From a virus, in IMG/VR virus record IMGVR_UViG_3300010357_000589, positions 1-24,000 of that record: a stretch of DNA of 24,000 nt, one strand, 5' to 3'. This document shows, in pieces, positions 1-23,880 of the stretch. The translations under genes were made by a program, and so were the position numbers. The stretch's first letter is position 1, and every line of letters starts with the position of its first letter. The notes beneath the pieces were generated by a model. It did not search any database. It saw nothing but the letters and a program-made list of their open reading frames with translations, and was not told where the DNA came from.

Positions 1-770
1 TACCATTTCGTAGGGTCTAATGCCCCACCACTGCGTTTATAAGCAGTTCCAATATTTAATAAATCATCTTTATTCTGTCCTTGCCAAGTTGTGTAATCGC
101 TTAATGCGGTGATAGTCAAATTCCCAGCTTGAATAAAATTAGGCGTTGTTCCTGAGGGAGTAGTTGTTATGAAAGATGTGCTATCTGACGTTAATTCAGA
201 AATCCCACTCGTTCTGAAATTATACGCCCAATATTGAGGCGATGTAGTCGCAGGGGTTATAAACGAAGCACAGTTCCTTGCGTTAAGACAGTTTGGAGCG
301 GAAGCTATGGAAGTATCAGTAACAACATCTCCGTCGTCATCAACCTCAACCACCTCAAAAGCATAATTAAATAATGCAGACCTCGTGCTTGTTGTAATCC
401 CAGTGGTAACTTGAAACGGCATTCTGAATTTTACTTTAGATAGAAGTATTGTTTCTTGGTATTCAGTCGCACCTGTTTCAATCTTTAAATATCTTGATCC
501 ATTTTCTTCGCCATCAACCCCGATTGTATGGTCAGTTCCTTGCTGAACAATAGTCCAATTATTCGTTGTATCAAACGTCGCAAATTCATCTCTAAACCTG
601 TCAATGCAAGTCGTAACTATCTGATTACCATTTTCATTTAACGCACCTTGATTGGCTTCAGTTGCAAGTCGTTCACTAACGCCACTATCATCAACCCCTC
701 TAACTCGTTGTGCGGAGTAACTATTCGTCGCTAAAAGTAAAATTAAAATTATTGATAATATTTTCTTCAT
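1..770 (-). CDS. Signal-peptide-bearing beta-rich putative virion/surface protein, paralog of 779-2119; truncated by left window edge (256 codons visible)
   Basis: Not in ORF track. ATG at 770, RBS AAGGAGG at 774-780, open to the edge. Hand translation MKKILSIILILLLATNSYSAQRVRG...DRFRDEFATFDTTNNWT...ETILLSKVKFRMPFQVTTG...EVVEVDDDGDVV...TTPSGTTPNFIQAGN...ALDPTKW aligns block by block with the neighbouring ORF. Confidence 0.85.
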   Translation of the reverse strand, partial: MKKILSIILILLLATNSYSAQRVRGVDDSGVSERLATEANQGALNENGNQIVTTCIDRFRDEFATFDTTNNWTIVQQGTDHTIGVDGEENGSRYLKIETGATEYQETILLSKVKFRMPFQVTTGITTSTRSALFNYAFEVVEVDDDGDVVTDTSIASAPNCLNARNCASFITPATTSPQYWAYNFRTSGISELTSDSTSFITTTPSGTTPNFIQAGNLTITALSDYTTWQGQNKDDLLNIGTAYKRSGGALDPTKW

Positions 771-778
771 ATTCCTCC

Positions 779-2119
779 TTATGAAACGTATGTCATTGTT
801 ACTATAACTTTACTTGCATCAATCGCTGTTGTATCATTATCAGCAATCCCTTTTGTAACGCCGTAACCAATCCCTAAAGGAAATCTTATCGGTGTAACGC
901 CAGCAGGCACAGAAACTGTCTGTCCAGCAGGGATCATAATCACTAAGACAGGCGTATCAGTTCCCACCGTTGGAGCTGTTGCTTTATTATATAACTTGAA
1001 ATAAACATCATCATTCCCACTATTCGATAAGACTATGTTTGTTATAACGCTAACTGTTCCGTCAACTAAAGTGTCGTTCGTTGAATTTCCGCATATTTGA
1101 TAATGATGAAATGATGACCCGTAACTTGTGGCTACATACGGATAAACTACTGAAACCATATTCTGGACATAGACAGGTGCGGCGGCTTGTGCATCAACTG
1201 GATTAACTAATCCAAAGTCAACAGATACACGAGAAGCATCACAAACCCTAATCATATGAATATTAAAATCAGCGGCGGTAACTGCGGCGTTATTCTTTAA
1301 TCTAATTCTAATTGTATAATTTTTCGTAGGGTCAATAACAGAAGTGTTCTTTTTATATAATGTCCCAACGGTAGTTAAATCAGGACGTTCGCTCGTATAA
1401 TACCCATATTCATTTGTTGCAATAATAACCTGATTTCCAGCTTGAATATAATTAGGATATGAACCAGAAGGCGTTGTTGAAGCATAGTTTCCCATAGCTG
1501 TCGCAACAGCACTCTCTGAATTTGCCGATGCCCTCATTACAAGTCTATTAGTCGTAACTGTCGTTCCATCATAAACGATACCCATTACATTCGGCACAAG
1601 CCCAGAATAAGTCTGTGCATCAGCAGTTTCAACTACATCTCCGTTATCATCAACTTCGACTACCTCCAAGATAGGAAGTAAATTAGCTTGTCGTCCAGAA
1701 GTAGCCGCACCACTCGTATCGCTTGATAAAGTAACTGAAACACCAAACGTAACCTTAAACGGCACTTTAAAACTTTTCTTACATAACAGAATTGTTTCAG
1801 CCCCAGACGTCGTTCCAGAATTGATTGCTAAGAACCTCGCACCGCCTGCAACGCCTCTTAATTCATAAGATTGCCCTGTTCCTAATTGTTTAACTGTCCA
1901 ATTATTAACCTCATCAAAAGTATTGAAATCATCTCTAAATTTATCGTTATGCGTTGAGATGATGGTATTGCCAGAAGTAGAAAGGTTTCCTTGCTTGTCT
2001 GACGTTGCGGGATTGATTATTGTATTAGTCGTGTCCTTTAACTTCATCGCCGAAAAATCAGCACTAAAGGCATTTGTCGCTAATAATAAACATAATAATA
2101 ATGATAAGAATTTCTTCAT
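779..2119 (-). CDS. Signal-peptide-bearing putative virion/surface protein with C-terminal phage structural module (YFKLYNKATAPTVGTDTP)
   Basis: Start reassigned to MKKFLSLLLCLLLATNAFSA (ATG 2119, TAATG overlap with upstream stop). Ser/Thr-rich beta-type sequence; the C-terminal motif recurs in phage structural proteins. Confidence 0.75.
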   Translation of the reverse strand: MKKFLSLLLCLLLATNAFSADFSAMKLKDTTNTIINPATSDKQGNLSTSGNTIISTHNDKFRDDFNTFDEVNNWTVKQLGTGQSYELRGVAGGARFLAINSGTTSGAETILLCKKSFKVPFKVTFGVSVTLSSDTSGAATSGRQANLLPILEVVEVDDNGDVVETADAQTYSGLVPNVMGIVYDGTTVTTNRLVMRASANSESAVATAMGNYASTTPSGSYPNYIQAGNQVIIATNEYGYYTSERPDLTTVGTLYKKNTSVIDPTKNYTIRIRLKNNAAVTAADFNIHMIRVCDASRVSVDFGLVNPVDAQAAAPVYVQNMVSVVYPYVATSYGSSFHHYQICGNSTNDTLVDGTVSVITNIVLSNSGNDDVYFKLYNKATAPTVGTDTPVLVIMIPAGQTVSVPAGVTPIRFPLGIGYGVTKGIADNDTTAIDASKVIVTMTYVS

Positions 2120-3930
2120 TAACTTCCCCTTTCCCAATTCGTTCCATTAGATATAACAACTATTGACCCAGCGTCATACATTTCAACTGACGCTTCTCCT
2201 CTTATTGTTTGACCGCCTGTCCCAATAATAGTTACTGTTCCAATCCCAGAGCTTGCAATAATATTATATTCTCTCCCTTCAATTCCTACTGCGGAAGGCA
2301 AAGTAATCGTTGCAGTATTTGTTACTATAACTTTATGATGTGTTTCATTAAGAGATGTGTTCCCAGAAACAATTGTTACTTTTGAACCAAAAGAACCGCC
2401 AATATCTAACATCGAAGAAGGCGTTGTCGTTCCTATTCCTACATTCCCAGAAGGTTGTTTTATTGCGACTTGAGTTGTTCCATCTCCATCTTTAATTTTT
2501 AGAGTGTGTTCATCTGAACCATCAGAAATAATATCCCAAACAGGAGTTCCTTCATCGGCTAATGTGATTTTTGAAGAATTTATTGCTTTTTTATATGTAA
2601 TAATAACAACACCACTTCCTCCATATCCACCATCACTATTATTCTTTTTACTACCACCACCTCCACCTCCTCCTGTTCCATTCTCCCCGTTAGAGCCTAC
2701 GCCTGTCGTTCCACCATTTCCACCGCCACCAAGTCCACCAGAACCAGCTCCAGGACCAGGACACTCTGTTGGGTCTTGACTTCCACCACCACCACCTCCA
2801 GCGTAATATGAACCTAAAATAGGATGCAAGAACCCTATTCCTCCATTTGGAGTTACACCATTTCCCGCCCCAACTCCACCTGCACCACCGCCACCGCCGG
2901 CAGCTCTTAATGTTGGATAATTTTGAATACCTCTTCCACCAGCATTTCCATATCCTATTGCCCCATTCATAGATATTTGTGTTGCGTCTCCTGGAGCTAC
3001 TTCAGACCAAGCACCACCGCCACCAGAACCACCATCATCACTATAAGTTCCAGATTCTCCATTTCCTTCACCACCACCGTAAGCTATAAATTCAGGAGAA
3101 TCTGCGGATGTTCCAAAATAGGATGAACCAGATTGAACAGAAGGATTTGCTCTTTTACCACCTACACCAACATTTACATAATATGTTTGTCCTCCGACTA
3201 ATTCATAATTACTATGATATAATAACCCACCAGCACCACCACCCCCACCTCCACGATAACCGCCACCACCGCCACCACCGACAACCATTATTTGGGCATA
3301 TCTGCCTACTGTTGGAGCGACAAAAGTAGCCGTTCCTGGTACGGAAAATGTATGAACAACATATTCATATAATCCACTTGTATGAGTAGTTATTACCCCA
3401 CCTTTTGAAGTTATCTCTCCTGTATCAACTGCATTTACCAAAACATCCCCAACAACTTCCAACTTCTCTGAAGGCGTTGAAGTGCCTATTCCGACATTTC
3501 CTGCATTATAATAAATATCTGTTCCGTTATTTGTCCATTGACTTCCAATGTAAGGAGTCCCATTTACATATAAAGCTGTTCCATTTATTATCCCATTTAC
3601 ATCTAATTTAAAAGAAGGATTAGATTTACCAATACCAACAGAATCAGAAGTTGCAGTTAGATAAACATTCGATCCTGATTTTGTCCATCCTGTTGCGTTT
3701 TGAGCATCTGCATCACTATATCCAGGAAGTCCTGCACATTCAGTTTTTCCATTTACATCAGAACATGTTAATCCTGTTGTGAAGTTTAGATAAGGTCGAG
3801 GTCTTAAACTAACACCATTATTTTGAATTATAATTGCTTGTGCAGTTTTTCCGCCAATCGTTGTTTCGCTGTCCGCAAAAGAAACAATAGGCATTATAAT
3901 TAATAATATTAATAATAAAAATTTACGCAT
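2119..3930 (-). CDS. Tail-fibre/adhesin-like protein with signal peptide, VGIG repeats and glycine-rich domain
   Basis: N-term MRKFLLLILLIIMPIVSFA; repeats SDSVGIGKSNP, AGNVGIGTSTP, SGNVGIGTTTP; Gly-rich domain (VVHTF...IMVVGGGGGGG..GGGGGGAGG); C-terminal TITLPSA..G..Y...SNGTNW module. Confidence 0.8.
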   Translation of the reverse strand: MRKFLLLILLIIMPIVSFADSETTIGGKTAQAIIIQNNGVSLRPRPYLNFTTGLTCSDVNGKTECAGLPGYSDADAQNATGWTKSGSNVYLTATSDSVGIGKSNPSFKLDVNGIINGTALYVNGTPYIGSQWTNNGTDIYYNAGNVGIGTSTPSEKLEVVGDVLVNAVDTGEITSKGGVITTHTSGLYEYVVHTFSVPGTATFVAPTVGRYAQIMVVGGGGGGGYRGGGGGGAGGLLYHSNYELVGGQTYYVNVGVGGKRANPSVQSGSSYFGTSADSPEFIAYGGGEGNGESGTYSDDGGSGGGGAWSEVAPGDATQISMNGAIGYGNAGGRGIQNYPTLRAAGGGGGAGGVGAGNGVTPNGGIGFLHPILGSYYAGGGGGGSQDPTECPGPGAGSGGLGGGGNGGTTGVGSNGENGTGGGGGGGSKKNNSDGGYGGSGVVIITYKKAINSSKITLADEGTPVWDIISDGSDEHTLKIKDGDGTTQVAIKQPSGNVGIGTTTPSSMLDIGGSFGSKVTIVSGNTSLNETHHKVIVTNTATITLPSAVGIEGREYNIIASSGIGTVTIIGTGGQTIRGEASVEMYDAGSIVVISNGTNWERGS

Positions 3931-4789
3931 TTCTATTTTTAAGATCCTCTTTTAACTTCCTCAGGGCTTCTTCTGTGTTTTTTTCATCCAGCAATTTAAC
4001 AAGATTAAGCTCTTTAATTAGAAGTTTATTCTCTTGATTTTTAATAGCCGCAAGACTCGCATCGATTGATTTTTGTCTTGATTCAAATAAAGACTTCTCT
4101 TCTTCATATTGTTTAATTTTATCAATCAAAGATTCTTGAATGTTATGAGCTTTTAATATTTCGCTATCCAGAATTTTCTTCTTTTCTTTAATTTCTAATA
4201 TTTGAGCAGAAATAACATTTTTATCATACTCAATTCTTTTCTTCTCAGACAAAACATCTTCCATCGACTCTTTGACTTCTTCTTCTTTCCTTTTTAAATC
4301 AATTAACATAGAGTCTAATTCTTTTTGTTTTTGAATATTAGAATTATAAGTTTCATTTGCGGCGTTTTGAATAAAATTAACAGACTCGATTTTCTTTTTT
4401 AGATCAGCAGACTCTATTAATAGCTTCTGCTCTCTTGATTTAATATCTTTTAGAAAATCTGAATTCTTTTTGACTAAAATTTCCTGTTCAGCTTTATTTC
4501 TTTCTATATCTGCAATAATTATTGATTGCTCACTTTTTATCTTATTTAGTATTGATGTCTCATTAGCAATATCTTCTTTTATCTTCGATAAAATATTCTG
4601 AGACGATTCTTTTTTATCTGTCAAATAATCAATAGACACATTCAAAGACTTTATAATTTCATTCTTCTCATTAATTTGAGAAGAAAAAGATAAATCCATT
4701 TGACGTTTGCTTTGTAATGTAGATTCTAATGAAGATATTCTTTGTTTTAATGAAATTATTTTATTTTCTAATTCTTTTTTATCTTCCAT
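3923..4789 (-). CDS. Long coiled-coil protein, function unknown
   Basis: 288 aa, K/E/I/L-rich heptad pattern throughout, no signal peptide, tightly packed with neighbours. Confidence 0.7.
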   Translation of the reverse strand: MEDKKELENKIISLKQRISSLESTLQSKRQMDLSFSSQINEKNEIIKSLNVSIDYLTDKKESSQNILSKIKEDIANETSILNKIKSEQSIIIADIERNKAEQEILVKKNSDFLKDIKSREQKLLIESADLKKKIESVNFIQNAANETYNSNIQKQKELDSMLIDLKRKEEEVKESMEDVLSEKKRIEYDKNVISAQILEIKEKKKILDSEILKAHNIQESLIDKIKQYEEEKSLFESRQKSIDASLAAIKNQENKLLIKELNLVKLLDEKNTEEALRKLKEDLKNRNA

Positions 4790-4790
4790 A

Positions 4791-5135
4791 TTACATCTCC
4801 GATGTTTTAACTGTTACATAAACTGTTCCTGTAAAATTTGCATTTGTGCATTGAACTTTTAGTTTATCTGAACTTTGAAGGTTCTCCTCTCCTTGAGGCT
4901 TATATCTTGCTGATGATTCTGCAACTAAAACAACATCCCATATTAAAGTATCAAATGCAGATCCAACTCCCATATCTATTGTCGCAGAGACCTGTTCAGA
5001 TATTGGAATAGATGAAGCGACATTAATGCTTTCTATTTTAACTTTTCTTCCGAAGTTAAAAGTATGATTAAGCGGAGCAAGAGATAAATCTTGGCTTATT
5101 GTTAAATCTGATCTTAAAAAATGGGCAGTTTTCAT
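4791..5135 (-). CDS. Small beta-rich putative virion protein (no signal peptide)
   Basis: 114 aa, RBS GGAGG, alternating beta-strand pattern ending KLKVQCTNANFTGTVYVTV. Confidence 0.6.
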   Translation of the reverse strand: MKTAHFLRSDLTISQDLSLAPLNHTFNFGRKVKIESINVASSIPISEQVSATIDMGVGSAFDTLIWDVVLVAESSARYKPQGEENLQSSDKLKVQCTNANFTGTVYVTVKTSEM

Positions 5136-5153
5136 TTTTTAGGCCTCCTAAAA

Positions 5154-5591
5154 TTATTGAGCGAATATTAAATCTACTGTCGCAATTCCATTTCCTGCAT
5201 TTCCTTGAATTAAAAATCTTCCATAAGTCAAATTAACAGACTCTATTGTCGCTAAAGAATATGTGTCTGATGTCGCAGATGTAGAAATAACATCTGTAAC
5301 AATATAAGATGTATCGATTGATCCCTCAATTTTAGGAGGCCTATAAGACTCTTGAAAAGAAATCTTAACATCTGGAGTTGTCCCAGTGACTTTATAAATA
5401 AGACCTATTTTATTAGATGATGCGGTTTTGAATGATTTTGAATATATTGTTCCTGTGCTAGTTACAACAATTGATGTATTATTGCTTGATTTTGCACTGT
5501 TTGATACTCTAAATTGTGCGTTAGCATTAACGCATAATATGAAGCTAAACGCTATCGTTAAAATTAAGTGAATAAACTTGATTCTTTTCAT
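5154..5591 (-). CDS. Signal-peptide-bearing beta-sandwich-like protein
   Basis: MKRIKFIHLILTIAFSFILCVNANA|QF with A-N-A cleavage motif; RBS GGAGGAG; Ser/Thr-rich mature part. Confidence 0.75.
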   Translation of the reverse strand: MKRIKFIHLILTIAFSFILCVNANAQFRVSNSAKSSNNTSIVVTSTGTIYSKSFKTASSNKIGLIYKVTGTTPDVKISFQESYRPPKIEGSIDTSYIVTDVISTSATSDTYSLATIESVNLTYGRFLIQGNAGNGIATVDLIFAQ

Positions 5592-6753
5592 TTTCTCCTC
5601 CGTGTATTAAAGCTATTATTATTGTTGTTATATATTGATAAACGCCCAATTGCCAAATAAATGTTCCAAAAGCACATAAGCATAGAACAACCATAGAAGT
5701 CGAAGTCCTAATATCAGAACTCATTTTGAATGAATTGAATAATGACATTATAAGCAAAATTAATCCAAACAATCCACAAGCATAAAAAAAGTCTAAATAT
5801 TCATTATGAGCCTGATTAAATTTTGTCTTAATATCGTCATTCTTTGCAGAAAATATTACAGCATAAGAACCTAAACCAACGCCTGTGAAAGAATATCTTT
5901 TAAGGTTATCTTCTTTAAAAGGATTTGTTGAGACATCTATAATTGTCCTTTTCCAAACTTCTTTTCTTCCGCTCATCCATTTACCATCTTTAATAACAAA
6001 AATAGCTGTTGATATTAATATGAATATAAATAATATTCTTAAGATATTGAACGATTTACTTAGTCTTACATGATCAAGAAAGATGAAAATATAACCGCAT
6101 ATCATTGATCCTATTCCGACCATACTCTTTGTTAAAATGCAAGATATGGCACATATAATAGATATATATTTCTTATCAACAATCCATGCCAAACAAGCAG
6201 ACAATGCTAAATAAGGTGCTAATAAAGTCGGTTGACCTAAATTTCCGACTATATAAAAAGATGGAACGGTTTTTATTATAGGATTTTCTGATTGTAAATA
6301 AAACTGATCAACGCCGAAAGATTGAATAATTGCATATATGGAAAGAATTAACCCACATTTAATAATAATATTAAAAATTTCATCTATATATTTATAATAT
6401 TGGCTCGCTGTTATAAACAATAGAAACGCAGATAAGACCTCAACCATCGGTTTCCATTTCCAGAAGCTCGTATAATCAACGTCGTTTAGTTGAAATGGCA
6501 TCTTCCACCATAAATGAGAAACATAAAATATGAAAAACACCATTATCGGAATTAATTTAGATCTTTTACTTAAACGGATATTCTTTCCTTCAATCAAATG
6601 TAAACAAAAACAGCCGACAGAGAAAAGCATTAATAAAAAAGCTTTTGCTTCCCTCGTATCGGCTGTTATACATTGCGAGAAAGGTAGTAATTTAATAATT
6701 ATCTCATAAAACGGAATAACAACCAATCCTATAAAAATCAAGTTTAATGTCAT
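5545..6753 (-). CDS. O-antigen ligase / O-oligosaccharyltransferase family (Wzy_C) integral membrane protein
   Basis: About ten hydrophobic segments plus family motifs in canonical order: YAIIQSFGVD, GNLGQPTLLAPYL, LTKS, SGRKEVWK (Arg), GVGLGSY, QAHNEYLDFFYACGLFGL (His). Confidence 0.9.
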   Translation of the reverse strand: MTLNLIFIGLVVIPFYEIIIKLLPFSQCITADTREAKAFLLMLFSVGCFCLHLIEGKNIRLSKRSKLIPIMVFFIFYVSHLWWKMPFQLNDVDYTSFWKWKPMVEVLSAFLLFITASQYYKYIDEIFNIIIKCGLILSIYAIIQSFGVDQFYLQSENPIIKTVPSFYIVGNLGQPTLLAPYLALSACLAWIVDKKYISIICAISCILTKSMVGIGSMICGYIFIFLDHVRLSKSFNILRILFIFILISTAIFVIKDGKWMSGRKEVWKRTIIDVSTNPFKEDNLKRYSFTGVGLGSYAVIFSAKNDDIKTKFNQAHNEYLDFFYACGLFGLILLIMSLFNSFKMSSDIRTSTSMVVLCLCAFGTFIWQLGVYQYITTIIIALIHGGENEKNQVYSLNFNDSV

Positions 6754-6776
6754 TATAACCCTTTTAAATAAAATAA

Positions 6777-7262
6777 TTAATTATTATCTACCCAAGTCCC
6801 AACACGATCTACACAATACCAAAATGAACCATCAGAAACTAAAGTCACAGAATCTCCTGTTGAACCAGCTGATATTAAGCTATCTCCTGTGGCAAATGTG
6901 TCTGCTCCATAAACACATCCCATTAGAGTATCTGACGATTGAGGATCAATGATTATTTTTTTAGATGACCCACTTGATGCAAGAACGAATTTATATATAA
7001 GACCATTTGCGGCTTTCGGTAAAGTCACAGTTGTGTTTGCTGTTGGCTTATATATAAAAGTTTTTCCTGTTTCAGCGGCTGTAATCGTGTCCAGTGTTGC
7101 CGTAACAACTTCATTTAGTTGTTTATATATAACCTGCCCAGAACTGTTAATCCTAAAACTATTTGTAGAAAACTCGTCTCCATCTGCGGCATAAACATTC
7201 ACAGATAAAGCTAACACAAACAGCATTAGAATAATAATTCTTAAATTTTTTATTCTAAACAT
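6777..7262 (-). CDS. Signal-peptide-bearing decoration/head-fibre-like protein
   Basis: MFRIKNLRIIILMLFVLALSVNVYA|AD; module TVTLPKAANGLIYKF...DTLMG...VTLVSDGSFW typical of phage structural proteins; first gene after the capsid gene; RBS GGAGGAG. Confidence 0.7.
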   Translation of the reverse strand: MFRIKNLRIIILMLFVLALSVNVYAADGDEFSTNSFRINSSGQVIYKQLNEVVTATLDTITAAETGKTFIYKPTANTTVTLPKAANGLIYKFVLASSGSSKKIIIDPQSSDTLMGCVYGADTFATGDSLISAGSTGDSVTLVSDGSFWYCVDRVGTWVDNN

Positions 7263-7281
7263 TCTCTCCTCCGTTTGATAA

Positions 7282-7307
7282 GATGGGGGACGATTAAATC
7301 CCCCATC
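7282..7307 (-). terminator. Hairpin directly downstream of the major capsid gene; probable leaky terminator or processing/stability hairpin
   Basis: Perfect 9-bp stem GATGGGGGA/TCCCCCATC with 8-nt loop; only a weak U-tract (UUAUC) follows on the minus strand. Confidence 0.55.
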
Positions 7308-7318
7308 ATTGTTAGCTA

Positions 7319-8257
7319 TTAAAGACCTGTTGAACCAAAAGCGGCACGCCAGTTATCATATCCACAGACATATCTCATCTCGCCTAAGAAATTATAAGCT
7401 CTGATTGAGTAATCAATCCATGCATAATAAGCTGGTTTCTTTCTCCAAACCATTTTGAAATATCCTAACCAAGGAAACACAATATACCAAGCTGTGTTGC
7501 TTCCGCCTAAAGCGGCACCAAGGTAAACATCTTCAACAGGTTTATAATTCCACATACCTTTACGAACTGCAAACTGATTAACATCTCTGTTAGTCGTTCC
7601 AGGTCGTTCAACAGCTCTTTCACTCAAAACTCTTTGAACTTGACCTCGTAATGCAGGTGGGTAAAGTAAAAGAGGATCTTGAGTAATAGGTATTGGAATG
7701 CCTTTCATATCAAACATATTAGCTGAGATTTGGGTCTCTGCTAATTCTAAATTGTCATGGCTGAAAGCTCCAGACAATAAGTTTGAAAATAAAGTTCCGC
7801 TTTCTTCACGATTTTTAGGATGGCTCGCAGAAAATAAATAAACACCATCAGGACCTGCGACGCTGAAACCATTAATCAAAACTCCAGATAAATCTTTTTT
7901 GACTTTAGCATCAGCACCGATACCCATATTCTTTGCATCGCTCTCTTTGCGAATTAAAGCATACTCATCATCTTCAACAGCCTGAAAGGATACTTGGAAC
8001 CCTTTAGTCATATCTCCGACTGTATATGTTTTTGGGTATCCTAAAACAGGATCTTCAAAATTAGCCGCAGATAATTCATCGACTGTTTCCCATTCTCCAA
8101 AACCAGAAATATCATCAACGATGAAATTCTTTTGTTTTGTCGTTATTTCATTAAATGCTTCAATACAGCCGCCTTTATACTGTTCAAAAGTTGATAACAT
8201 AAAACTATCATAAATTGACGTGTATAATTCGGCTACGTTTGCTCTTACTGTAGACAT
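7319..8257 (-). CDS. Major capsid protein, Mu gpT-like (HK97 fold)
   Basis: 312 aa; motifs GPDGVYLFSASHP, LLYPPAL, TAWY, C-terminal DNWRAAFGSTG; position after portal, scaffold and cement genes. Confidence 0.85.
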   Translation of the reverse strand: MSTVRANVAELYTSIYDSFMLSTFEQYKGGCIEAFNEITTKQKNFIVDDISGFGEWETVDELSAANFEDPVLGYPKTYTVGDMTKGFQVSFQAVEDDEYALIRKESDAKNMGIGADAKVKKDLSGVLINGFSVAGPDGVYLFSASHPKNREESGTLFSNLLSGAFSHDNLELAETQISANMFDMKGIPIPITQDPLLLYPPALRGQVQRVLSERAVERPGTTNRDVNQFAVRKGMWNYKPVEDVYLGAALGGSNTAWYIVFPWLGYFKMVWRKKPAYYAWIDYSIRAYNFLGEMRYVCGYDNWRAAFGSTGL

Positions 8258-8282
8258 ATTAATCTCCTTTCTTCAGTGTAAA

Positions 8283-8747
8283 TTAAGCTCCGATACGGAC
8301 GAAACGACCTTTGACATATCCACCAGCATTTACAGCAACAGCTTCTGCGGATATATCTATTTCGTCAATACGGAAACCCCACTGAACGCAAGTTGTATCC
8401 GTAACGTCAATATCATAGTTATGCTCTAAATCGACTATCTCACCAACGTCGGTTTGTGCGGCTTTAGTTGAAGAACCATTTGGAACCCAGAATGTATATT
8501 GATCATTCGGTGGGATAACAGGAACTTCAATTGCTCCTGCGGCACCTGAGTTATTATTAGCGTCTGCGGCGGCAATTCCTAAGAAAGTAGCCGCAAAAGC
8601 TGTCCCATTTACTGCATACCCATTACCATCATCAAACACTGCAGATCCTTTAGCAATGCTTGTCGTCCCAGCAACAGGCACATAAATTAAACCTTGATTT
8701 GTGATTAAATTATCAAGGGTAAATCCTGCTTTATAATATCGACCCAT
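8283..8747 (-). CDS. Capsid cement/decoration protein (DUF2190-like)
   Basis: Start reassigned to MGRYY (ATG 8747, RBS GGAGGA). Pattern VPVAGTTSIAKGSAV...FLGIAA; typical position just upstream of the capsid gene. Confidence 0.65.
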   Translation of the reverse strand: MGRYYKAGFTLDNLITNQGLIYVPVAGTTSIAKGSAVFDDGNGYAVNGTAFAATFLGIAAADANNNSGAAGAIEVPVIPPNDQYTFWVPNGSSTKAAQTDVGEIVDLEHNYDIDVTDTTCVQWGFRIDEIDISAEAVAVNAGGYVKGRFVRIGA

Positions 8748-16833: not shown

Positions 16834-17184
16834 ATGAAAAAAAGAACATTCAAAAAACTCAATTTTATATTACCAAAATCAGTCCAAGAAAGGATCGAAG
16901 CAAAGAAGAATGGGACTTTCGAAGAAACAAAGAGACAAACAACATTAAAAGGGAAGTCAAGAAACGATTTAATGTTAGATGCAAAAGAAAAAGGAATTAA
17001 AAATTTCAGGATCCTAAACAAAGAAGAATTAACAGCTGTTCTTGATGAGAAAGCATCTCCAGAAACAATAAAAGAAATAACAGCAAAAGCTGTTGAAAGA
17101 TGGAAAAGTGGATGGGGCTCTAAAGATAAACTTGGAAATATACCAACAGAAACATTAAACAAATCAATCAAAAAAGGACTATAA
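16834..17184 (+). CDS. Protein with Rho N-terminal-like (helix-extended-helix) motif
   Basis: SRNDLMLDAKEKGIKNFRILNKEELTAVL fits the Rho_N pattern (L...AK..GI.....L.K.EL); RBS AAGGAG. Confidence 0.6.
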   Translation: MKKRTFKKLNFILPKSVQERIEAKKNGTFEETKRQTTLKGKSRNDLMLDAKEKGIKNFRILNKEELTAVLDEKASPETIKEITAKAVERWKSGWGSKDKLGNIPTETLNKSIKKGL

Positions 17185-17185
17185 T

Positions 17186-17434
17186 ATGTTTAGATATTCA
17201 ATTAAAATCCCTTATTGGAAAGAGAAAGGCATCAGCGTGGACTTAGATAAATGCCACGATGATGAATTTGAAGTCGAATGCACACATAAAAACGCAGATG
17301 GATCAAGATATTTTGATGGAGTGTATAAAGTAAAGCGTCACATAGTTGAACAGATGAAAGATGTCCGAGCAAAGAATAAAACATTAAAACTAATCACTTT
17401 CGATTATCTAAGGACTTTAAAGGAGAAATTATGA
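17186..17434 (+). CDS. Hypothetical protein
   Basis: 82 aa, starts 1 nt after the upstream stop. Confidence 0.65.
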   Translation: MFRYSIKIPYWKEKGISVDLDKCHDDEFEVECTHKNADGSRYFDGVYKVKRHIVEQMKDVRAKNKTLKLITFDYLRTLKEKL

Positions 17435-17568
17435 AAAATAAAAAGCTTGAAATTAATTATAAGAATGTTTACAGTGATCAAATAAAATTCAATAAAGAAC
17501 CAGAAAATGATAAATGGAAAAAATCCCACAGAGAAGTTTTTATGGATGTTGAAAAAGATTCAATTTAA
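17431..17568 (+). CDS. Small hypothetical protein (45 aa, MKNKKLEINY...)
   Basis: Not in ORF track; ATGA overlap with upstream stop, RBS AAGGAG, fills the gap. Confidence 0.55.
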   Translation: MKNKKLEINYKNVYSDQIKFNKEPENDKWKKSHREVFMDVEKDSI

Positions 17569-17591
17569 ACCAAACAAAAAAGGAGACGACA

Positions 17592-18386
17592 ATGAAAAAC
17601 AGATTAGAGTTATTAGACCAAATCAAATCAATCAAAAATCTAAAGATTGAACCTATTAAATGGAAAGGTCAAGAAACAGGAAAAAATATTGTCCATGATG
17701 ATGAAAGATTTTATTCAGTGGTTGGAGACCAATATGTGCCAATTCCTTATGGAGACCTTCTTGCAAAAGTTATGGAGTATCTTCCAGATGGCATACCAAC
17801 ATCAGCTGTTACTAATAAAGGAATGACTCGAACAATGATTTCAATTGAAATCCCAAACAAAGACTATGATGTCGGAGGAGACAAAATTAAGACTTATGTA
17901 AATCTTCTTAATTCATTGGATGGATCTGCTCCAATAGGTCTTCTTGTCTCACCTGTAAGGGTGGCGTGTCAAAATCAATTTGTTCTTTGTAAGAAAAGTG
18001 CATTTATTCATTTGAACTATAAACACATACAATCAAGAATCGAGATATTTAATAAAGATGTAAAGATTCTTGAAAAAGTCGATGAACTTGTCAAACATCA
18101 AGTAATCTTAGCACAGGCTCTAAACGGTCGAAAAATAACAACACAAAAAGGACTGGACATCATAAATGATCTCCATAAAGAATTAATTATTCCTAAGAAA
18201 ATTATGGAATCAGCAACATCGCTTTGGGAGTCTCCAATCAGAAAGAACGATGAAGAAAGAAGCTTGTGGAGACTTTTTAATTCAATAACAGATCCTCTCA
18301 ATCGGTTAATAGATGAAAAAGAAAATATCCTATACACAGAAAAAATCCAGAATATAGGACATGAATTTGCATCAATGCTAAACTAA
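17592..18386 (+). CDS. DUF932 family protein
   Basis: LLNSLDGS...VRVACQNQ...KH and SLWRLFNSIT motifs. Confidence 0.8.
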   Translation: MKNRLELLDQIKSIKNLKIEPIKWKGQETGKNIVHDDERFYSVVGDQYVPIPYGDLLAKVMEYLPDGIPTSAVTNKGMTRTMISIEIPNKDYDVGGDKIKTYVNLLNSLDGSAPIGLLVSPVRVACQNQFVLCKKSAFIHLNYKHIQSRIEIFNKDVKILEKVDELVKHQVILAQALNGRKITTQKGLDIINDLHKELIIPKKIMESATSLWESPIRKNDEERSLWRLFNSITDPLNRLIDEKENILYTEKIQNIGHEFASMLN

Positions 18387-18400
18387 ACAAAACATGTGGT

Positions 18401-18420
18401 GGGGGAGTAAAATCTCCCCC
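18401..18420. other. GC-rich intergenic hairpin upstream of the replication initiator
   Basis: GGGGGAG-TAAAAT-CTCCCCC, extendable by GTGG/CCAC; no clean U-tract on either strand. Confidence 0.45.
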
Positions 18421-18455
18421 TTCCACTTCCACAAACTAATCATAATGGAGATAAT

Positions 18456-19370
18456 ATGGAAGAAAAAGATAAACAGTTTTATTGGCTTAGGCTAAAAAAG
18501 GATTTTTTCAAAAAACATGACATAAAAATTATTGAAGGAATGCCAAATGGGAAAGATTATATTTTATTTTATCTTAAACTTTTATGCGAATCAGTAGATC
18601 ATGAAGGTAATTTAAGATTTAATGAAGAGATACCATACAATGAAGAGATGATATCAATAATAACTAATACTAATATTGATATTGTAAGAAGTGCCATAAA
18701 AATACTAACATCTCTAAAGATGATGGATATTCTTGATGATGGCACTTATTATATGAATAAAATTGAAAAAATGATTGGACATGAGACATATTGGGCAGAA
18801 AGAAAAAGGAAGCAAAGATTGGACAATGTCCAACAATTGTCCAACTTGTCCAAGCAAGAGTTAGAGATAGAGTTAGAGATAGATAAAGATAAAGAGTTAA
18901 ATAATAAGATAAAGCGTTTTGTAAAACCAGATATTAAAGATGTTATTGATTATTGTAATGAACGAAATAATTGTGTAGATCCTCAAAAATGGTTCAACTT
19001 CTATGAATCTAAAGGTTGGATGATAGGCAAGAATAAGATGAAAGATTGGAAGGCGGCTGTTAGGACATGGGAAAAGGGAATAATTAAAAAACCAACAAAT
19101 TCAGAAGCTATTGAATATTTTTATAAGAAATATGAAGAAAAAACAGGATCTAAATATGTTTTAGGAGAAAAAGATGTTGATTCTATTAATGAAATTCTAA
19201 GTTTTTTAACACTAGAACAATTCAAATATAAAGTAAATGCTTTTTTTTCAATAGAAAGTGAGTTCGTAAGAAAAGCTGGATGGACTATTGGAGTCTTTAA
19301 ATCACAAATTAATAAGATAAAAGGAGACAAATATGAAGAAGGCATCGAAAGATTCATCAAGAATGATTGA
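18456..19370 (+). CDS. Replication initiator, phage replisome-organizer N-terminal family
   Basis: N-term FYWLRLKKDFF...ILFYLKLLCES; central FVKPDIKDVIDYC...FYESKGW...MKDWKAAVRTWE module; internal DNA repeats. Confidence 0.85.
   Translation: MEEKDKQFYWLRLKKDFFKKHDIKIIEGMPNGKDYILFYLKLLCESVDHEGNLRFNEEIPYNEEMISIITNTNIDIVRSAIKILTSLKMMDILDDGTYYMNKIEKMIGHETYWAERKRKQRLDNVQQLSNLSKQELEIELEIDKDKELNNKIKRFVKPDIKDVIDYCNERNNCVDPQKWFNFYESKGWMIGKNKMKDWKAAVRTWEKGIIKKPTNSEAIEYFYKKYEEKTGSKYVLGEKDVDSINEILSFLTLEQFKYKVNAFFSIESEFVRKAGWTIGVFKSQINKIKGDKYEEGIERFIKND
18819..18897. repeat. Iteron-like repeats, probable replication origin inside the initiator gene
   Basis: Palindrome TTGGACA-A-TGTCCAA (18819-33); TGTCCAA x3 (18827, 18838, 18847); GAGTTAGAGATA x2 (18858, 18870); GATAAA x2. 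Confidence 0.6.
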
Positions 19371-19860
19371 AATAATAAAACTTCCAATAGAAAAAAGGAA
19401 ACTAATGGTTGCTATATGGACAGCAGAAATGATTGATCAATATAAACCATTAAAATTTCCTAAAATGCCAAAACAGATGATTGATTATTATAATGCAGAC
19501 AGAATAAGAAGATCAAAAATATCAGATGAGTTTTGGAAACAACCAGAAATAAAAATGTATATAAAATTAAAAAATAAAGTTTATGTTCATAACATGTCTT
19601 GCTTGCATCATTTAAATGATTGTTTATCAATATTAAACGATGAGAACCACATTGATTTAAATGTAATTAAAGACGCTCTAAGTCTTTTTGATGAAACAAA
19701 AAATTATCATAATAATAGAATAAAAGAGATTTTAGAGGATGAAAATCAAATAGAGCCAGAATTTGTTAATAGCGAACCTGAACCAATATCAGTCGATGAT
19801 ATAGAATGGGATGATGATGAACCAAAAAAAGAAAAAAGAAGAGCAGATTTGGAAGATTAA
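19333..19860 (+). CDS. Hypothetical protein with acidic C-terminal tail, downstream of the initiator
   Basis: 175 aa; RBS AAGGAG (19321-26) supports ATG 19333. Confidence 0.7.
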   Translation: MKKASKDSSRMIEIIKLPIEKRKLMVAIWTAEMIDQYKPLKFPKMPKQMIDYYNADRIRRSKISDEFWKQPEIKMYIKLKNKVYVHNMSCLHHLNDCLSILNDENHIDLNVIKDALSLFDETKNYHNNRIKEILEDENQIEPEFVNSEPEPISVDDIEWDDDEPKKEKRRADLED

Positions 19861-19951
19861 TCCGATTTTAATATTTGGAAAGGAGGGATGGGATGAATTA
19901 AAAAAAGTCTTAAAAATGTTTAATGGCAAAGTGACAAAGATATACAATTAA
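19817..19951 (+). CDS. Possible small protein (44 aa, MNQKKKKEEQIWKINPILIFGKEGWDELKKVLKMFNGKVTKIYN)
   Basis: Not in ORF track; fills the gap before the 19955 promoter; overlaps upstream gene, no clear RBS. Confidence 0.35.
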   Translation: MNQKKKKEEQIWKINPILIFGKEGWDELKKVLKMFNGKVTKIYN

Positions 19952-19954
19952 AGC

Positions 19955-19983
19955 TTGATTTTTAAATTGCATTATGTTATAAT
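19955..19983 (+). promoter_or_regulatory. Sigma70-type promoter with extended -10 for the recombination module
   Basis: TTGATT (19955-60), 17-nt spacer, TATAAT (19978-83), preceded by TGn. Confidence 0.75.
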
Positions 19984-20009
19984 TCCAAAAAATGACGACG
20001 GAGGAAAAA

Positions 20010-20141
20010 ATGAATAATAAAAATAACGACGACGATTTAACTCCTAACGAAGAAATTATGGAAAGTGCATTAATAGTTTTCTCTTGTATTTGTATCTGCA
20101 TTTTAATTTTAATCGGTTCACTAATAATAGGGAGGGTGTAA
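20010..20141 (+). CDS. Small single-pass membrane protein (43 aa)
   Basis: Not in ORF track; RBS GGAGG at 20000-04; MNNKNNDDDLTPNEEIMESALIVFSCICICILILIGSLIIGRV. Confidence 0.6.
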   Translation: MNNKNNDDDLTPNEEIMESALIVFSCICICILILIGSLIIGRV

Positions 20142-20142
20142 A

Positions 20143-20844
20143 ATGGAAAAAAACATTACTGTAAAAGAAGAAACATCTCCATCAGAGATGATAAAGACCG
20201 CAGTATCAAATGGTGCTGATTTAGAGAAGATTGAGAAGCTGTTAATATTACAAGAACGATGGGAAGCAAATGAAGCGAAGAAAGCTTACCATAGAGCTAT
20301 GGCTGATTTTAAAGTAAATCCACCTAAAATAAACAAAGATAAAAAGGTGTCGTTTCACACTGAAAAAGGAACAACATCTTATAATCACGCAACTCTTGCG
20401 AATGTCACTCAAAAAATTAATTCAGAATTAAGTAAATATGGTCTTTCAGCTTCTTGGAAAACAAACCAATCAAACGAATCAATAACTGTAACTTGTAAGA
20501 TAACACATGTCTTGGGTCACAGTGAAGAAACATCTTTGACGGCTGGAAGAGATAAATCTGGGTCAAAAAATGACATACAAGCACTAGGAAGCACAATTAC
20601 ATATCTTGAGAGATATACTCTTCTCGCAATGGTCGGTCTTGCAACATACGATCAAGATGATGATGGAGCCATGACATCTAAAAAACCAGCGGTTAAAGCA
20701 ACAGAATCAAAATCTGAGAACGATTTAAGTAAATATAAAGAATGTGAATGTGGAGCTGTTGTGATTGATAAAGTCGCAGATTTTAGCGAGAAAAAATATG
20801 GTAAAATACTTTGTTATTCATGCCAAAAGAAGGTGAAAAAATGA
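20143..20844 (+). CDS. erf: ERF-family single-strand annealing protein with C-terminal Zn finger
   Basis: YNHATL...GLS, GSTITYLERYTLLAMVGLA..DDDG signature; C-terminal CECG...CYSCQ. Confidence 0.88.
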   Translation: MEKNITVKEETSPSEMIKTAVSNGADLEKIEKLLILQERWEANEAKKAYHRAMADFKVNPPKINKDKKVSFHTEKGTTSYNHATLANVTQKINSELSKYGLSASWKTNQSNESITVTCKITHVLGHSEETSLTAGRDKSGSKNDIQALGSTITYLERYTLLAMVGLATYDQDDDGAMTSKKPAVKATESKSENDLSKYKECECGAVVIDKVADFSEKKYGKILCYSCQKKVKK

Positions 20845-21449
20845 GCGAATTAATATTTGACGAAATAAATCATCAATATTTTATAAAAAATGGGGATGAT
20901 TTAAAAATTGTTCCTTCAGTAACTCAAATATTAGATCATTTCAAAATGATGGATTTTTCAAATGTAAATGAAGAAATCCTAAAAAATGCGTCTGATTTTG
21001 GGAAACAAGTCCATAAAGCATGTCAATTAGACGATTTAAATGATCTTAAAAATGTTGATGAAAGAATAGAGCCTTATTTAAATCAATATCGATTATTTAA
21101 AGAAGCAGTATGCCCAAAATGGGAGATCATAGAACAGAATTTATATTTCAAATCATATAATATCTGTGGAACTCCAGACAGGGCAGGGATTATTAAAAAT
21201 AAATTTTGCGTCTTAGATATAAAAACAGGAGTTAAAAAGCCTGCAGACGCATTACAGTTAGCTGGATATAAATGTTTAATTGAGGAAAATTATAAGAATC
21301 ATATAAAAGATAATGCTCAAAGATATACATTGCATCTATTTCCTAATAAATTTGAATTAGTTAAACATGAAAATATATCAGACAAAAGAATATTTTTATA
21401 TCTTGCAGATGTTTATGATTGGAAAGTAAGAAATAAACTAATAAAATAA
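20841..21449 (+). CDS. PD-(D/E)XK exonuclease-like protein
   Basis: Start reassigned to MSELIFDE (ATGA overlap). Motifs PSVTQIL, GKQVH, GTPD, LDIKTG, LQLAGY. Confidence 0.85.
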   Translation: MSELIFDEINHQYFIKNGDDLKIVPSVTQILDHFKMMDFSNVNEEILKNASDFGKQVHKACQLDDLNDLKNVDERIEPYLNQYRLFKEAVCPKWEIIEQNLYFKSYNICGTPDRAGIIKNKFCVLDIKTGVKKPADALQLAGYKCLIEENYKNHIKDNAQRYTLHLFPNKFELVKHENISDKRIFLYLADVYDWKVRNKLIK

Positions 21450-21481
21450 TTTTATACAATGTTTAAAAAGGAGACAAAAAA

Positions 21482-22165
21482 ATGGCGACGAAAAATGAAA
21501 TAGTAAAATTAGAAAAAGAAACAAATGAAGTGCTGGATAAAGCTAAAAGCCTTGTTATTAAAACACAGGATCAATACCTTTTTTGTGCAGAGTTCTTAAA
21601 AAGGGTAAAACAAATAAAAAAACAAATTGATGAAGCTTATGATGAGGGAATAGAGAATGCTCATAAAACTTGGAAAGGATTATTATCAAAGAAAAAAGAA
21701 TATTATGATCCGCTTGAACAGGCTGAAAAGATAATAAAACAAAAATCGATTGATTATATTATAGAGCAAGAGGCAATTCAGAAAGAACTCCAAAGGAAAG
21801 CAGAAGAAGAAGCTCGAAAAGCTGAAGAAAAAAGAAAATCAGATCTTGAGGCTCAAGCAAAAAAATGGGAAGAAAAAGGGAACATTGAAAAAGCCAAAGA
21901 GAAAAGGCAAATGATGGAAGATGTTTTTGTTCCAATAAAGAATGTTGATACGATTGAAATTTCTAAAGACCAGATAAAACGAAGTTTATGGAAAGCCAGA
22001 ATAAAAGAATTAGATTTAATCCCAAGAAAATATTTAATTGAAAATAAAAAACAGCATGATGAATTGATGTCTGTTCTTAATAGAATAGCATCATCCACAA
22101 AAGGATTAATCGAGATCCCTGGCGTTGAATTTTATGAAGAAAAAATACTAGCTGTTAAAATCTAA
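21482..22165 (+). CDS. Coiled-coil recombination-module protein (Gam/Gp157-like, tentative)
   Basis: Long coiled coil, then W....IP.KYL...IPGVEFYEE; location after ERF and nuclease. Confidence 0.5.
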   Translation: MATKNEIVKLEKETNEVLDKAKSLVIKTQDQYLFCAEFLKRVKQIKKQIDEAYDEGIENAHKTWKGLLSKKKEYYDPLEQAEKIIKQKSIDYIIEQEAIQKELQRKAEEEARKAEEKRKSDLEAQAKKWEEKGNIEKAKEKRQMMEDVFVPIKNVDTIEISKDQIKRSLWKARIKELDLIPRKYLIENKKQHDELMSVLNRIASSTKGLIEIPGVEFYEEKILAVKI

Positions 22166-22191
22166 TTATAAAGATTAAGTAATTTATATTA

Positions 22192-22332
22192 GTCGGGGTG
22201 CCTCTATAGTCGCCAAGCGTCTATAAGCACACTTCTCGGCAGTCGGCGTGGGACAAATCGTAAACATCTATTGATACTGTCATGACGGGTAGATAGAAAA
22301 GAACGGACAAAGACCACGCCTAAAAAGGAGGC
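22192..22332 (+). ncRNA. Candidate structured RNA element (two long imperfect hairpins), family unknown
   Basis: Hairpin A 22192-22240 and hairpin B 22245-22320; several G-U pairs favour the plus strand; no ORF with a plausible start. Confidence 0.4.
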
Positions 22333-22403
22333 TGTTAAAGATAAATATAATTGTAATATGTCTACAGGTAAAATTCAGGGGTATGGAGAAGTGATTATAT
22401 AAA

Positions 22404-22469
22404 TAAAAAAGCCCTGGGTTTCCTCAGGGCTCCGATCGCTTAGGCGATCCACCTCCAATTGCTTGGATT
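22404..22469 (-). ncRNA. Candidate ~65-nt antisense small RNA: three hairpins ending in an intrinsic terminator
   Basis: UCCAA-GCAA-UUGGA, GAUCGC-CUAA-GCGAUC, AGCCCUGAG-GAAA-CCCAGGGCU then U-tract; two GNRA loops only on the minus strand; promoter at the expected distance. Confidence 0.65.
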
Positions 22470-22475
22470 AATTAA

Positions 22476-22504
22476 AGTATAAAAGGTGTTTTAAAGAAAA
22501 TCAA
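22476..22504 (-). promoter_or_regulatory. Sigma70-type promoter for the candidate sRNA
   Basis: TTGATT (22504-22499), 17-nt spacer, TATACT (22481-76); shares GCTTGATTTT with the 19955 promoter. Confidence 0.65.
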
Positions 22505-22563
22505 GCGGTATTTTGTAAAAGGTCGTTAGAATAAAAAGTTTTCAGAATACGTGTTGTTAATTG

Positions 22564-22613
22564 TCAGATTATCGTCAGATGAAATTGAATAATCATCAGA
22601 TTTGACATATGAT
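22564..22613 (+). promoter_or_regulatory. Sigma70-type promoter with three TCAGAT direct repeats
   Basis: TTGAAT (22585-90), 17-nt spacer, TATGAT (22608-13); TCAGAT at 22564, 22575 and 22596. Confidence 0.55.
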
Positions 22614-22671
22614 GGAAAGACAAAAAATAAGTGTTTAGGCGTTTGAATTTTAATGATTAAAGGAGTGATGA

Positions 22672-22758
22672 ATGGCACAAAATAATGAACTAGAAAAAAC
22701 TTTATGGGCGGCGGCTGACAAGCTCCGCAATAATATGGAGGTTATATGTTTGCTATAG
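22672..22758 (+). pseudogene. hsdM: 28-codon ORF matching the N-terminus of type I R-M methyltransferase HsdM
   Basis: MAQNNELEKTLWAAADKLRNNM-EVICLL*; LWAAADKLRNNM is the HsdM N-terminal signature, normally continuing DAAEYK. RBS AGGAG 6 nt upstream. Confidence 0.75.
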
Positions 22759-22907
22759 TTGGTCATTGTCCTAAATGTGGATGTCCTATTTATTCGTGTG
22801 TTCAATGGCATGGCGTATGTCCGCCACCATCTCACTATTCGTGTCAGTGTCATCAAAACGAAACAGGTGGAATAAATGAAAGGGTAATAAATGACAAAAC
22901 CATATAA
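22746..22907 (+). CDS. Small Cys/His-rich putative metal-binding protein (53 aa)
   Basis: Not in ORF track; RBS GGAGG at 22737-41; MFAIVGHCPKCGCPIYSCVQWHGVCPPPSHYSCQCH... Confidence 0.65.
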   Translation: MFAIVGHCPKCGCPIYSCVQWHGVCPPPSHYSCQCHQNETGGINERVINDKTI

Positions 22908-23328: not shown

Positions 23329-23387
23329 TGGAGGTTTTAACTGCTTCAAATAATCAAACAAAACCGTATAAAATCGGTTAAATTAAC

Positions 23388-23416
23388 TTGACTTTTAGGG
23401 CAAAAAACGGTAAAAT
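23388..23416 (+). promoter_or_regulatory. Sigma70-type promoter
   Basis: TTGACT (23388-93), 17-nt spacer, TAAAAT (23411-16). Confidence 0.7.
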
Positions 23417-23422
23417 AGGAGC

Positions 23423-23632: not shown

Positions 23633-23633
23633 T

Positions 23634-23846: not shown

Positions 23847-23880
23847 GGAAAGGTGGAGAAATTAAAAGGGGAGGTGGAAA

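Follow-up and report, generated by a model that had tools for sequence, protein, structure and literature searches.

The DNA considered here is a stretch of 24,000 nucleotides (24 kb), referred to below as the window, which makes up the entire record of an uncultivated short-tailed phage (IMG/VR record IMGVR_UViG_3300010357_000589). Our subject is a cassette of genes located directly downstream of the major capsid gene, in which a putative membrane-embedded glycan transferase of the Wzy_C family is encoded together with several predicted exported proteins resembling phage spikes, fibres, and receptor-binding proteins. The window is organised in two arms. The early arm, on the plus strand (16834-24000), encodes a DUF932 protein, a replisome organiser, an ERF recombinase, and a PD-(D/E)XK nuclease, and the late arm, on the minus strand, encodes a DNA methylase, the small and large terminase subunits, an SU10-type portal, a coiled-coil scaffold-like protein, a phrog_1731 structural protein, and an HK97-type capsid protein. 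The gene of this major capsid protein (7319..8257, minus strand), which was recognised from Phage_capsid_4 (E-value 4e-7), Mu-like_gpT, and phrog_371 and has only distant matches among 50,697 deposited phage records, marks the upstream boundary of the cassette; all the genes of the window downstream of it belong to the cassette, in an unbroken minus-strand run.

The cassette begins with the gene of a 161-amino-acid (aa) predicted exported protein with a spike domain (6777..7262), assigned from its signal peptide and its fold, which is the conserved partner directly upstream of the putative transferase. The latter is a 402-aa polytopic protein, predicted to be a Wzy_C / WaaL-like glycan transferase from its Pfam match (5545..6753) and called here, for brevity, the ligase. 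They are followed by the genes of a small, predicted exported beta-sandwich protein of 145 aa (5154..5591), with a signal peptide and a match to phrog_28213 (E 1e-6), and of two proteins without signal peptides: one of 114 aa (4791..5135), conserved as orthologues in relatives, and a coiled-coil protein of 288 aa (3923..4789), described from its composition and conservation. The cassette continues with a predicted exported fibre- or adhesin-like protein of 603 aa (2119..3930) and a predicted exported lectin-like protein of the receptor-binding type of 446 aa (779..2119, counted from ATG), the latter assigned from its signal peptide and fold, and it is cut by the end of the window within the gene of a 505-aa predicted exported paralogue of the 446-aa protein, whose N-terminal 256 aa are present (3..770) and which is complete in L001, a longer contig of the same phage. 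These genes are tightly packed, with an overlap of 47 nucleotides (nt) between the 3' end of the ligase gene and the start of the 145-aa gene, and another of 8 nt between the 288-aa and 603-aa genes. In positions 1-8400, the number of terminator-like sites equals that of shuffled sequence (4 vs 4.0), and promoter-like sites are in modest excess (44 vs 33.5, standard deviation 5.8), the best of them with 10/12 matches. A preliminary description of this DNA, made from its letters alone, had placed eight open reading frames (ORFs) on the same strand directly downstream of the capsid gene, overlapping or abutting and without an obvious internal promoter, and all eight were recovered there with this arrangement.

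On the basis of motif and profile comparisons, the 402-aa protein is a member of the WaaL/Wzy_C superfamily and belongs to a phage-specific clade. It scores 34.3 bits against Pfam Wzy_C (cut-off 31.7), which is the sole Pfam family matched at E ≤ 0.1, and a precomputed PF04932 match is present in most of its phage homologues; NCBIfam returned a weak IctB match and nothing else. Among 5.8 billion clusters, 14 matches were obtained at E ≤ 0.001, consisting of the protein of the window itself, 12 homologues on contigs from metagenomes or metagenome-assembled genomes (MAGs), and a weak match from Gracilibacteria. An alignment of 12 of these proteins (A1) was used for the analysis of conservation and for the construction of a profile. 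In this alignment, H316, within the sequence AHNEYL, and the glycines G291, G293, and G295 are invariant, R263, within the motif GR..W, is nearly invariant, and the derived profile matches the solved WaaL structure 7TPG across the catalytic region (E 4e-5). Hydropathy analysis gave at least nine hydrophobic or membrane segments, together with a 68-aa loop (254-321) that holds both R263 and H316. The identification of this protein as a Wzy_C-family membrane enzyme, already made in the preliminary description, thus agrees with its Pfam score, its hydropathy, and its profile match.

Full-length relatives of the ligase are rare in cellular organisms: among 185,579 species, represented by one genome each, we found two of them, the other matches being confined to the surroundings of the catalytic motif. 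The nearest full-length cellular relative, from an Eisenbacteria MAG, adjoins two genes of GT4 glycosyltransferases and one of a Bac_transf initiating transferase. No match to the ligase was found in the 50,697 deposited phage records. In every locus with visible flanks, the ligase gene is located among structural or late genes, and in the lineage of the window it lies directly downstream of the capsid gene region described above; it does not occupy the lysogenic-conversion (moron) position that characterises the serotype-converting Wzy genes.

The second component of the cassette is its set of export signals. Signal peptides were scored by a home-made rule requiring a basic n-region, a hydrophobic h-region, and a small-x-small cleavage site. 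By this rule, N-termini of the Sec/signal peptidase I (SPase I) type are predicted in 5 of the 30 ORFs of the window, those starting at 7262, 5591, 3930, 2119, and 770, with no calls among the other 25-27 window ORFs, and in each of the five the cleavage site is followed by a polar mature part; these are exactly the five that the preliminary description had singled out. The signal peptide of the 161-aa protein has the n-region RIKNLR, an h-region rich in Leu and Ile, and a predicted cleavage at VYA|A, and the predicted sites of the 145-aa, 603-aa, and 505-aa proteins are NANA|Q, VSFA|D, and SYSA|Q, respectively. In the orthologues, the basic n-region, a charge-free h-region of 10-15 residues, and the small residues at -3 and -1 persist while the sequence drifts. 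Signal peptides are present in the orthologues of the 145-aa protein in four related phages (L010, L011, L013, and L060), and the orthologues of the 603-aa protein in the same four retain theirs. Two of these 603-aa orthologues had been miscalled as lacking a signal peptide, which they regain through upstream in-frame TTG or ATG starts. At these loci (L011:13399 and L013:13372), the gene callers began the fibre genes at an internal Met in or just after the signal peptide, so automated annotation hides export signals in these phages.

In total, signal peptides occur in four protein families of the ligase-bearing phages that are unrelated to one another. Two of these families have relatives elsewhere that lack such signals, and for the 145-aa family, shorter viral look-alikes hint at the same. 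A lack of signal peptides in homologues, named in the preliminary description as a point that would speak against its proposal, is seen in distant relatives from ligase-free phages, but not in the orthologues from ligase-bearing phages, which keep them.

The association of the ligase with exported proteins extends well beyond the window. Scans of IMG/VR with single proteins gave no matches, and the related loci were obtained by alignment-based (profile) scans, the ligase profile yielding a census of 24 loci. In these, signal-peptide starts are found in 5 of 155 head and packaging ORFs upstream of the ligase and in 32 of 87 ORFs downstream of it. The gene immediately upstream of the ligase has a signal peptide in 19 of 23 cases by the rule, and in 21 of 23 after two rule misses were read by eye. 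L010, L011, L013, and L060 share one order, with a capsid gene, a small signal-peptide protein, the ligase, and more signal-peptide proteins. Other forms of the arrangement occur in phages with different portals. L009, which has a T7-type portal, shows a 191-aa spike-domain protein with a signal peptide and the ligase, these two alone, between its capsid gene and apparent gp11-like adaptor, nozzle, and internal-core genes, in a tail module that is otherwise complete. L008, which has a P22-type portal, encodes two Wzy_C paralogues (~22% identical; L008:5054-6292 and L008:10001-11200) in one structural block, with five signal-peptide proteins around them, and in L007 the ligase is preceded by signal-peptide proteins of 1061 and 438 aa. 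A PHROG search with the signal-peptide proteins of L007, L008, and L009 gave no matches. A census based on the 145-aa family retrieved two homologues and one locus, which provides no usable second count. By the kind of synteny check proposed in the preliminary description, the ligase is thus fixed beside signal-peptide genes across many phage contigs, rather than sporadic.

The most constant partner of the ligase is the 161-aa protein. Its AlphaFold2 (AF2) model has a mean predicted local distance difference test (pLDDT) score of 85.6, with the N-terminus modelled as a helix. In this model, residues 48-160 superimpose on the spike domain of CBA120 TSP4 (7REJ) with a Z-score of 13.0 and a root-mean-square deviation (rmsd) of 1.8, and on the Pa223 capsid spike (9NY6) with a Z-score of 12.4, the rmsd for both structures being in the range 1.8-1.9. 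Other phage spike and baseplate proteins also match this fold in Foldseek, as do hundreds of Caudovirales models, and no match to the 161-aa sequence was found in the 50,697 deposited phage records. In L009, L010, L011, L013, and L060, the gene directly upstream of Wzy_C encodes a homologue that has a signal peptide. Family members without a signal peptide are found in phages without Wzy_C, where their genes follow Phage_capsid_3, Phage_capsid_4, SU10_MCP, or Phage_capsid genes, either immediately or after one intervening gene, a position that fits an ancestral role as a head-decoration or spike protein. The 161-aa protein therefore combines the two features by which a capsid spike would be recognised, the fold and the position of the family genes next to capsid genes. 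In one of the ligase-free phages, a gene resembling GIY-YIG/NUMOD3 homing endonucleases lies immediately upstream of the 161-family gene (L132:2914-3882).

Among the 69 scorable IMG/VR loci of the 161 family, eight have both a signal peptide and a ligase, two a signal peptide only, one a ligase only (in this case the ORF is 5'-truncated), and 58 neither. The two exceptions with a signal-peptide-like start and no Wzy_C within 4 kb are 161-family-domain proteins (L165:3620-4405 and L113:1973-4324), and at least that of L165 represents an independent gain of the signal peptide on the family tree, which was built without the N-terminus. On the same tree, a single change suffices to explain the state with both signal peptide and ligase; the association seen in the counts thus reflects one acquisition, retained afterwards, and no convergence, with independent origins of the pair, is claimed. 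Three points remain informative: that the pair is retained at low identity (the spike-domain protein and the ligase are held together down to ~28-36%), that it spans phages with portals of different Pfam families and with capsid proteins lacking mutual BLAST similarity, and that several unrelated families carry signal peptides.

The remaining proteins of the cassette are also, for the most part, of the types found in phage particles. The AF2 model of the 446-aa protein (pLDDT 82.8) retrieves in Foldseek the receptor-binding domain of TM4 gp23 first, and then ConA-like lectin and GH16 folds. Its family comprises 4702 representatives, with a signal peptide at the start in 3 of the best 150, and in IMG/VR 72 of 73 members have none, such relatives lying in ligase-free phages; the sole member with a signal peptide sits at a contig end, where the presence of a ligase cannot be scored. 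Against the 50,697 deposited phage records, the 446-aa protein is matched through its C-terminal domain only, and it shares 38% identity over 327 aa with the 505-aa paralogue. The 603-aa protein contains fibre repeats and matches Gly_rich_2 (E 2e-20) and phrog_2295 (E 2e-33). Upstream of position 3482, L002 and L003 share 99.5-99.9% identity with the window; exactly at this position, after about codon 149 of the 603-aa gene, both part from it, a breakpoint of the mosaic kind seen in receptor-binding proteins. Past this point, L002 encodes a variant at least 663 aa long, apparently through an exchange of the distal part of the fibre between strains. The 145-aa protein is placed by the ESM Atlas among small viral jelly-roll clusters, one of them 13% Bbp16 cement-like, which we take as a lead only. 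The 114-aa protein, with no Pfam or PHROG match, is 50% identical to its L010 orthologue, and the same gene, of 113-114 aa, follows the ligase in L013, L060, L062, L063, and L066. The 288-aa protein (Lys+Arg 19%, Asp+Glu 20%, no Gly) has conserved counterparts of ~280-310 aa in relatives, encoded next to the 114-aa gene on its downstream side; that it serves as a fibre shaft or an assembly factor is no more than a guess.

The contig L001 extends 1,345 nt past window position 1. This extension (L001:15984-18098 covers the region) contains the remainder of the 505-aa gene followed by ORFs of 55, 81 (with a weak DUF553 match), and at least 61 aa, the last of which, just past window position 1, has a sixth signal-peptide-like start. 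A circular genome was considered and rejected, as the extension is unlike the opposite end of the window, and for the same reason the genome must be longer than ~25.3 kb. Adaptor and nozzle genes are located outside the window. In longer relatives, an SU10-type adaptor gene and a nozzle-like gene of ~1000 aa are found several kb downstream of the block, past small ORFs with predicted membrane-spanning segments. In L059, a ligase-free relative, just two genes separate the capsid-like gene from the adaptor gene, and one of these encodes a 161-family protein that lacks a signal peptide. Because the canonical adaptor and nozzle genes sit further downstream in the longer relatives, and L059 has just these two intervening genes, the block is, judging by gene order, an accessory segment that was inserted or has expanded where head and tail genes meet, and not the tail or adsorption apparatus proper. 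The preliminary description had seen here a late-operon module of virion proteins with mature parts resembling fibre or decoration proteins. The resemblance holds, with spike and receptor-binding folds in the 161-aa and 446-aa proteins and a Gly-rich fibre in the 603-aa protein; the module, however, is an accessory insertion that separates the capsid gene from those of the adaptor and nozzle, rather than the tail itself.

The best-supported reading of these data is that the ligase and the exported proteins constitute one functional unit, which would operate at the outer face of the cytoplasmic membrane. Its most specific form, a periplasmic glycan transfer run by the phage onto its own exported spike and fibre proteins, is proposed tentatively, as we give it somewhat less than an even chance. 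According to this proposal, the host Sec system would export the spike, beta-sandwich, fibre, and lectin-like proteins of the cassette late in infection. The phage enzyme would then move a preassembled, undecaprenyl diphosphate (Und-PP)-linked glycan of the host en bloc onto these proteins, at the outer face of the cytoplasmic membrane. Once modified, the spikes and fibres would meet the particles assembled in the cytoplasm only at lysis, or else stay on the envelope. Such an en-bloc transfer would be the simplest chemistry, and it would follow the logic of the O-oligosaccharyltransferase pairs pilA-tfpO and PglL. The cassette contains no sugar-pathway genes, and none would be needed for this transfer. 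A further step, in which part of the particle is completed outside the cytoplasm, with Sec-exported and glycan-loaded spikes and fibres joining the capsids at lysis to yield virions cloaked in host sugars, is more doubtful, even if it deserves consideration.

Several observations weigh against the glycan-transfer proposal. Neither Pfam nor NCBIfam places this protein as a ligase, an O-oligosaccharyltransferase, or a polymerase; the accessory domains of the protein O-oligosaccharyltransferases are, however, lineage-specific, and their absence here is compatible with such an activity. No acceptor sequon is known, and the richness of the exported proteins in Ser and Thr, initially taken as a sign of acceptors, was rejected as such, being a family trait, with equal content in relatives that lack a signal peptide. 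The block also contains two conserved proteins, of 114 and 288 aa, that have no export signal, and the single change on the 161-family tree described above limits the weight of the co-occurrence. In addition, the exported proteins need not be parts of the particle, since the canonical adaptor and nozzle genes lie elsewhere, and we know of no tailed phage that adds exported proteins to its particle. A separate observation concerns the nozzle-like gene that follows the SU10 adaptor in L011, where a TTG that may serve as a start, with the ribosome-binding site AAGGAGG, would give a signal-peptide-like N-terminus (L011:18998-19094), and where the conserved motif of the nozzle type begins at a later ATG without a ribosome-binding site. 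The long form, if made, would be a core tail protein with an export-like signal, which is hard to square with a model of export. As a whole, the original proposal, which already combined export, glycosylation by a phage ligase, and late addition to the particle, is thus partly sustained: the signal peptides are kept, the ligase is syntenic, the folds are of virion type, and relatives without signal peptides occur in ligase-free phages, but the Ser/Thr richness adds nothing to it.

The main rival explanation is the remodelling of the host surface, in which the enzyme would act as a WaaL-type ligase or a Wzy-type polymerase on the lipopolysaccharide, capsule, or exopolysaccharide of the host late in infection, so as to mask receptors and spare the progeny from adsorbing to debris, or to exclude other phages; the lectin-like proteins would here bind or present glycans instead of being substrates. 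The sole solved structure matched by the ligase profile is indeed a WaaL, the nearest cellular relative belongs to a polysaccharide cluster (the two GT4 genes and the Bac_transf gene mentioned above), and the exported proteins show lectin and receptor-binding folds. Moreover, Wzy enzymes of phages and prophages that convert the O-antigen or the capsule are documented (PMC4815439, PMC13228068). These conversion genes, however, are lysogenic or moron genes and not fixed parts of a late structural operon, and a change made shortly before lysis would have little time to act. Neither the gain of signal peptides by several unrelated families of particle type nor the near-constant adjacency of the spike-domain and ligase genes would be explained. 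We regard this explanation as unlikely.

Less probable still, and rather improbable in our view, is that the exported proteins are release or anti-readsorption factors, that is, spike, lectin, or depolymerase-like proteins that would loosen or coat surface polymers at lysis without being acceptors, the ligase having a separate or supporting function. The ConA/GH16-like fold of the 446-aa and 505-aa proteins would suit such a role, and so would the fibre repeats and the Gly-rich, adhesin-type domain of the 603-aa protein and the small ORFs with predicted membrane-spanning segments that follow the block in relatives. Nevertheless, the consensus of the 446-aa family, read by eye and with no motif search made, keeps E.V.VD..G and not the GH16 catalytic motif, ExDxxE. 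No secretion route across the outer membrane is encoded, and it would be left unexplained why partner and ligase are strictly adjacent in the two-gene form of L009. As for the idea that the N-termini are uncleaved membrane anchors or assembly helices, so that the proteins would join the particle on the inner side of the membrane, with the polytopic protein as an assembly platform instead of an enzyme, it would find a basis in the N-terminal helix of the AF2 model and in the possible upstream TTG start of the L011 nozzle-like gene, but we consider it highly improbable, as the conserved n-region, the charge-free h-region, and the small -3/-1 residues are typical of SPase I substrates, and an inert scaffold would not need the Arg and His motifs conserved in the enzyme.

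Regarding the host of this phage, Gln at position +1 after three of the signal peptides of the window hints at a member of the Bacteroidota. However, most window genes have an AGGAG, GGAGG, or AGGAGG motif upstream at the usual distance, and such strong Shine-Dalgarno motifs argue against this host.

The interest of the glycan-transfer proposal lies in what it would add to the general picture of tailed phages, for which the folding and assembly of particle proteins are assumed to be cytoplasmic. Here, a group of uncultivated phages keeps a ligase in the head-to-tail block and export signals on several unrelated families of particle type. If the enzyme does modify the exported proteins, it would represent the first system of periplasmic protein glycosylation run by a phage, with a bearing on host recognition and on how phages avoid adsorbing to debris or evade immune recognition. 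The signal peptides dropped by gene callers at two loci are also of relevance for phage annotation in general. In a more applied context, these loci may be a source of compact enzyme-substrate pairs for glycoconjugate engineering, and the minimal two-gene form, consisting of a spike-domain protein and a ligase, makes the question directly testable. A search of the full-text literature retrieved phage Wzy conversion enzymes and bacterial O-oligosaccharyltransferases, but not the arrangement of a ligase with exported virion proteins, in accordance with the preliminary description, to which no characterised tailed-phage system of this kind was known.

Among the known systems, the closest at the level of the enzyme is WaaL from Cupriavidus metallidurans (7TPG/7TPJ), which is likewise a polytopic Wzy_C protein with a large loop carrying a conserved Arg and an H-N/D-x-x-L motif. 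Contrary to WaaL, the phage clade forms a separate lineage, and its gene belongs to a late operon of phages, where it adjoins genes of predicted exported phage proteins. At the level of gene organisation, the closest parallels are the PilA-TfpO/PilO pairs and PglL. PglL and TfpO glycosylate Ser/Thr residues of an exported protein, which is often the product of the adjacent gene. They share with the phage cassette the same superfamily, a Sec-exported partner encoded directly upstream, the use of the Und-PP-glycan pool of the host, which in the phage case is proposed, and the lack of sugar genes of their own. In the phage case, the partner is a spike-domain protein instead of a pilin, and no accessory domain of the O-oligosaccharyltransferases is detected by Pfam.

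To our knowledge, the phage-borne enzymes of the Wzy/WaaL type known so far are lysogenic-conversion genes. Among them, Wzy-beta of the Pseudomonas aeruginosa phage D3 and the Wzy of an Acinetobacter prophage belong to the same phage-borne Wzy/Wzy_C world and act on host Und-PP glycans (PMC4815439, PMC13228068); these are conversion genes without exported structural partners, whereas the ligase presented here is fixed in a late block between head and tail genes and coupled to signal-peptide proteins. On the side of the partner, the Pa223 capsid spike and CBA120 TSP4, which contain the T4 gp10-like or XD domain, share the fold of residues 48-160 of the 161-aa protein, and signal-peptide-free relatives of the latter follow capsid genes; these spikes, unlike the 161-aa protein, have no signal peptide and fold and assemble in the cytoplasm. 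Finally, the glycosylation of mycobacteriophage virions offers a precedent for a phage that puts sugars on its own particle proteins. In that system, cytoplasmic glycosyltransferases modify capsid and tail proteins that are not exported, whereas in the phages described here the glycan would be transferred en bloc, outside the cytoplasm.

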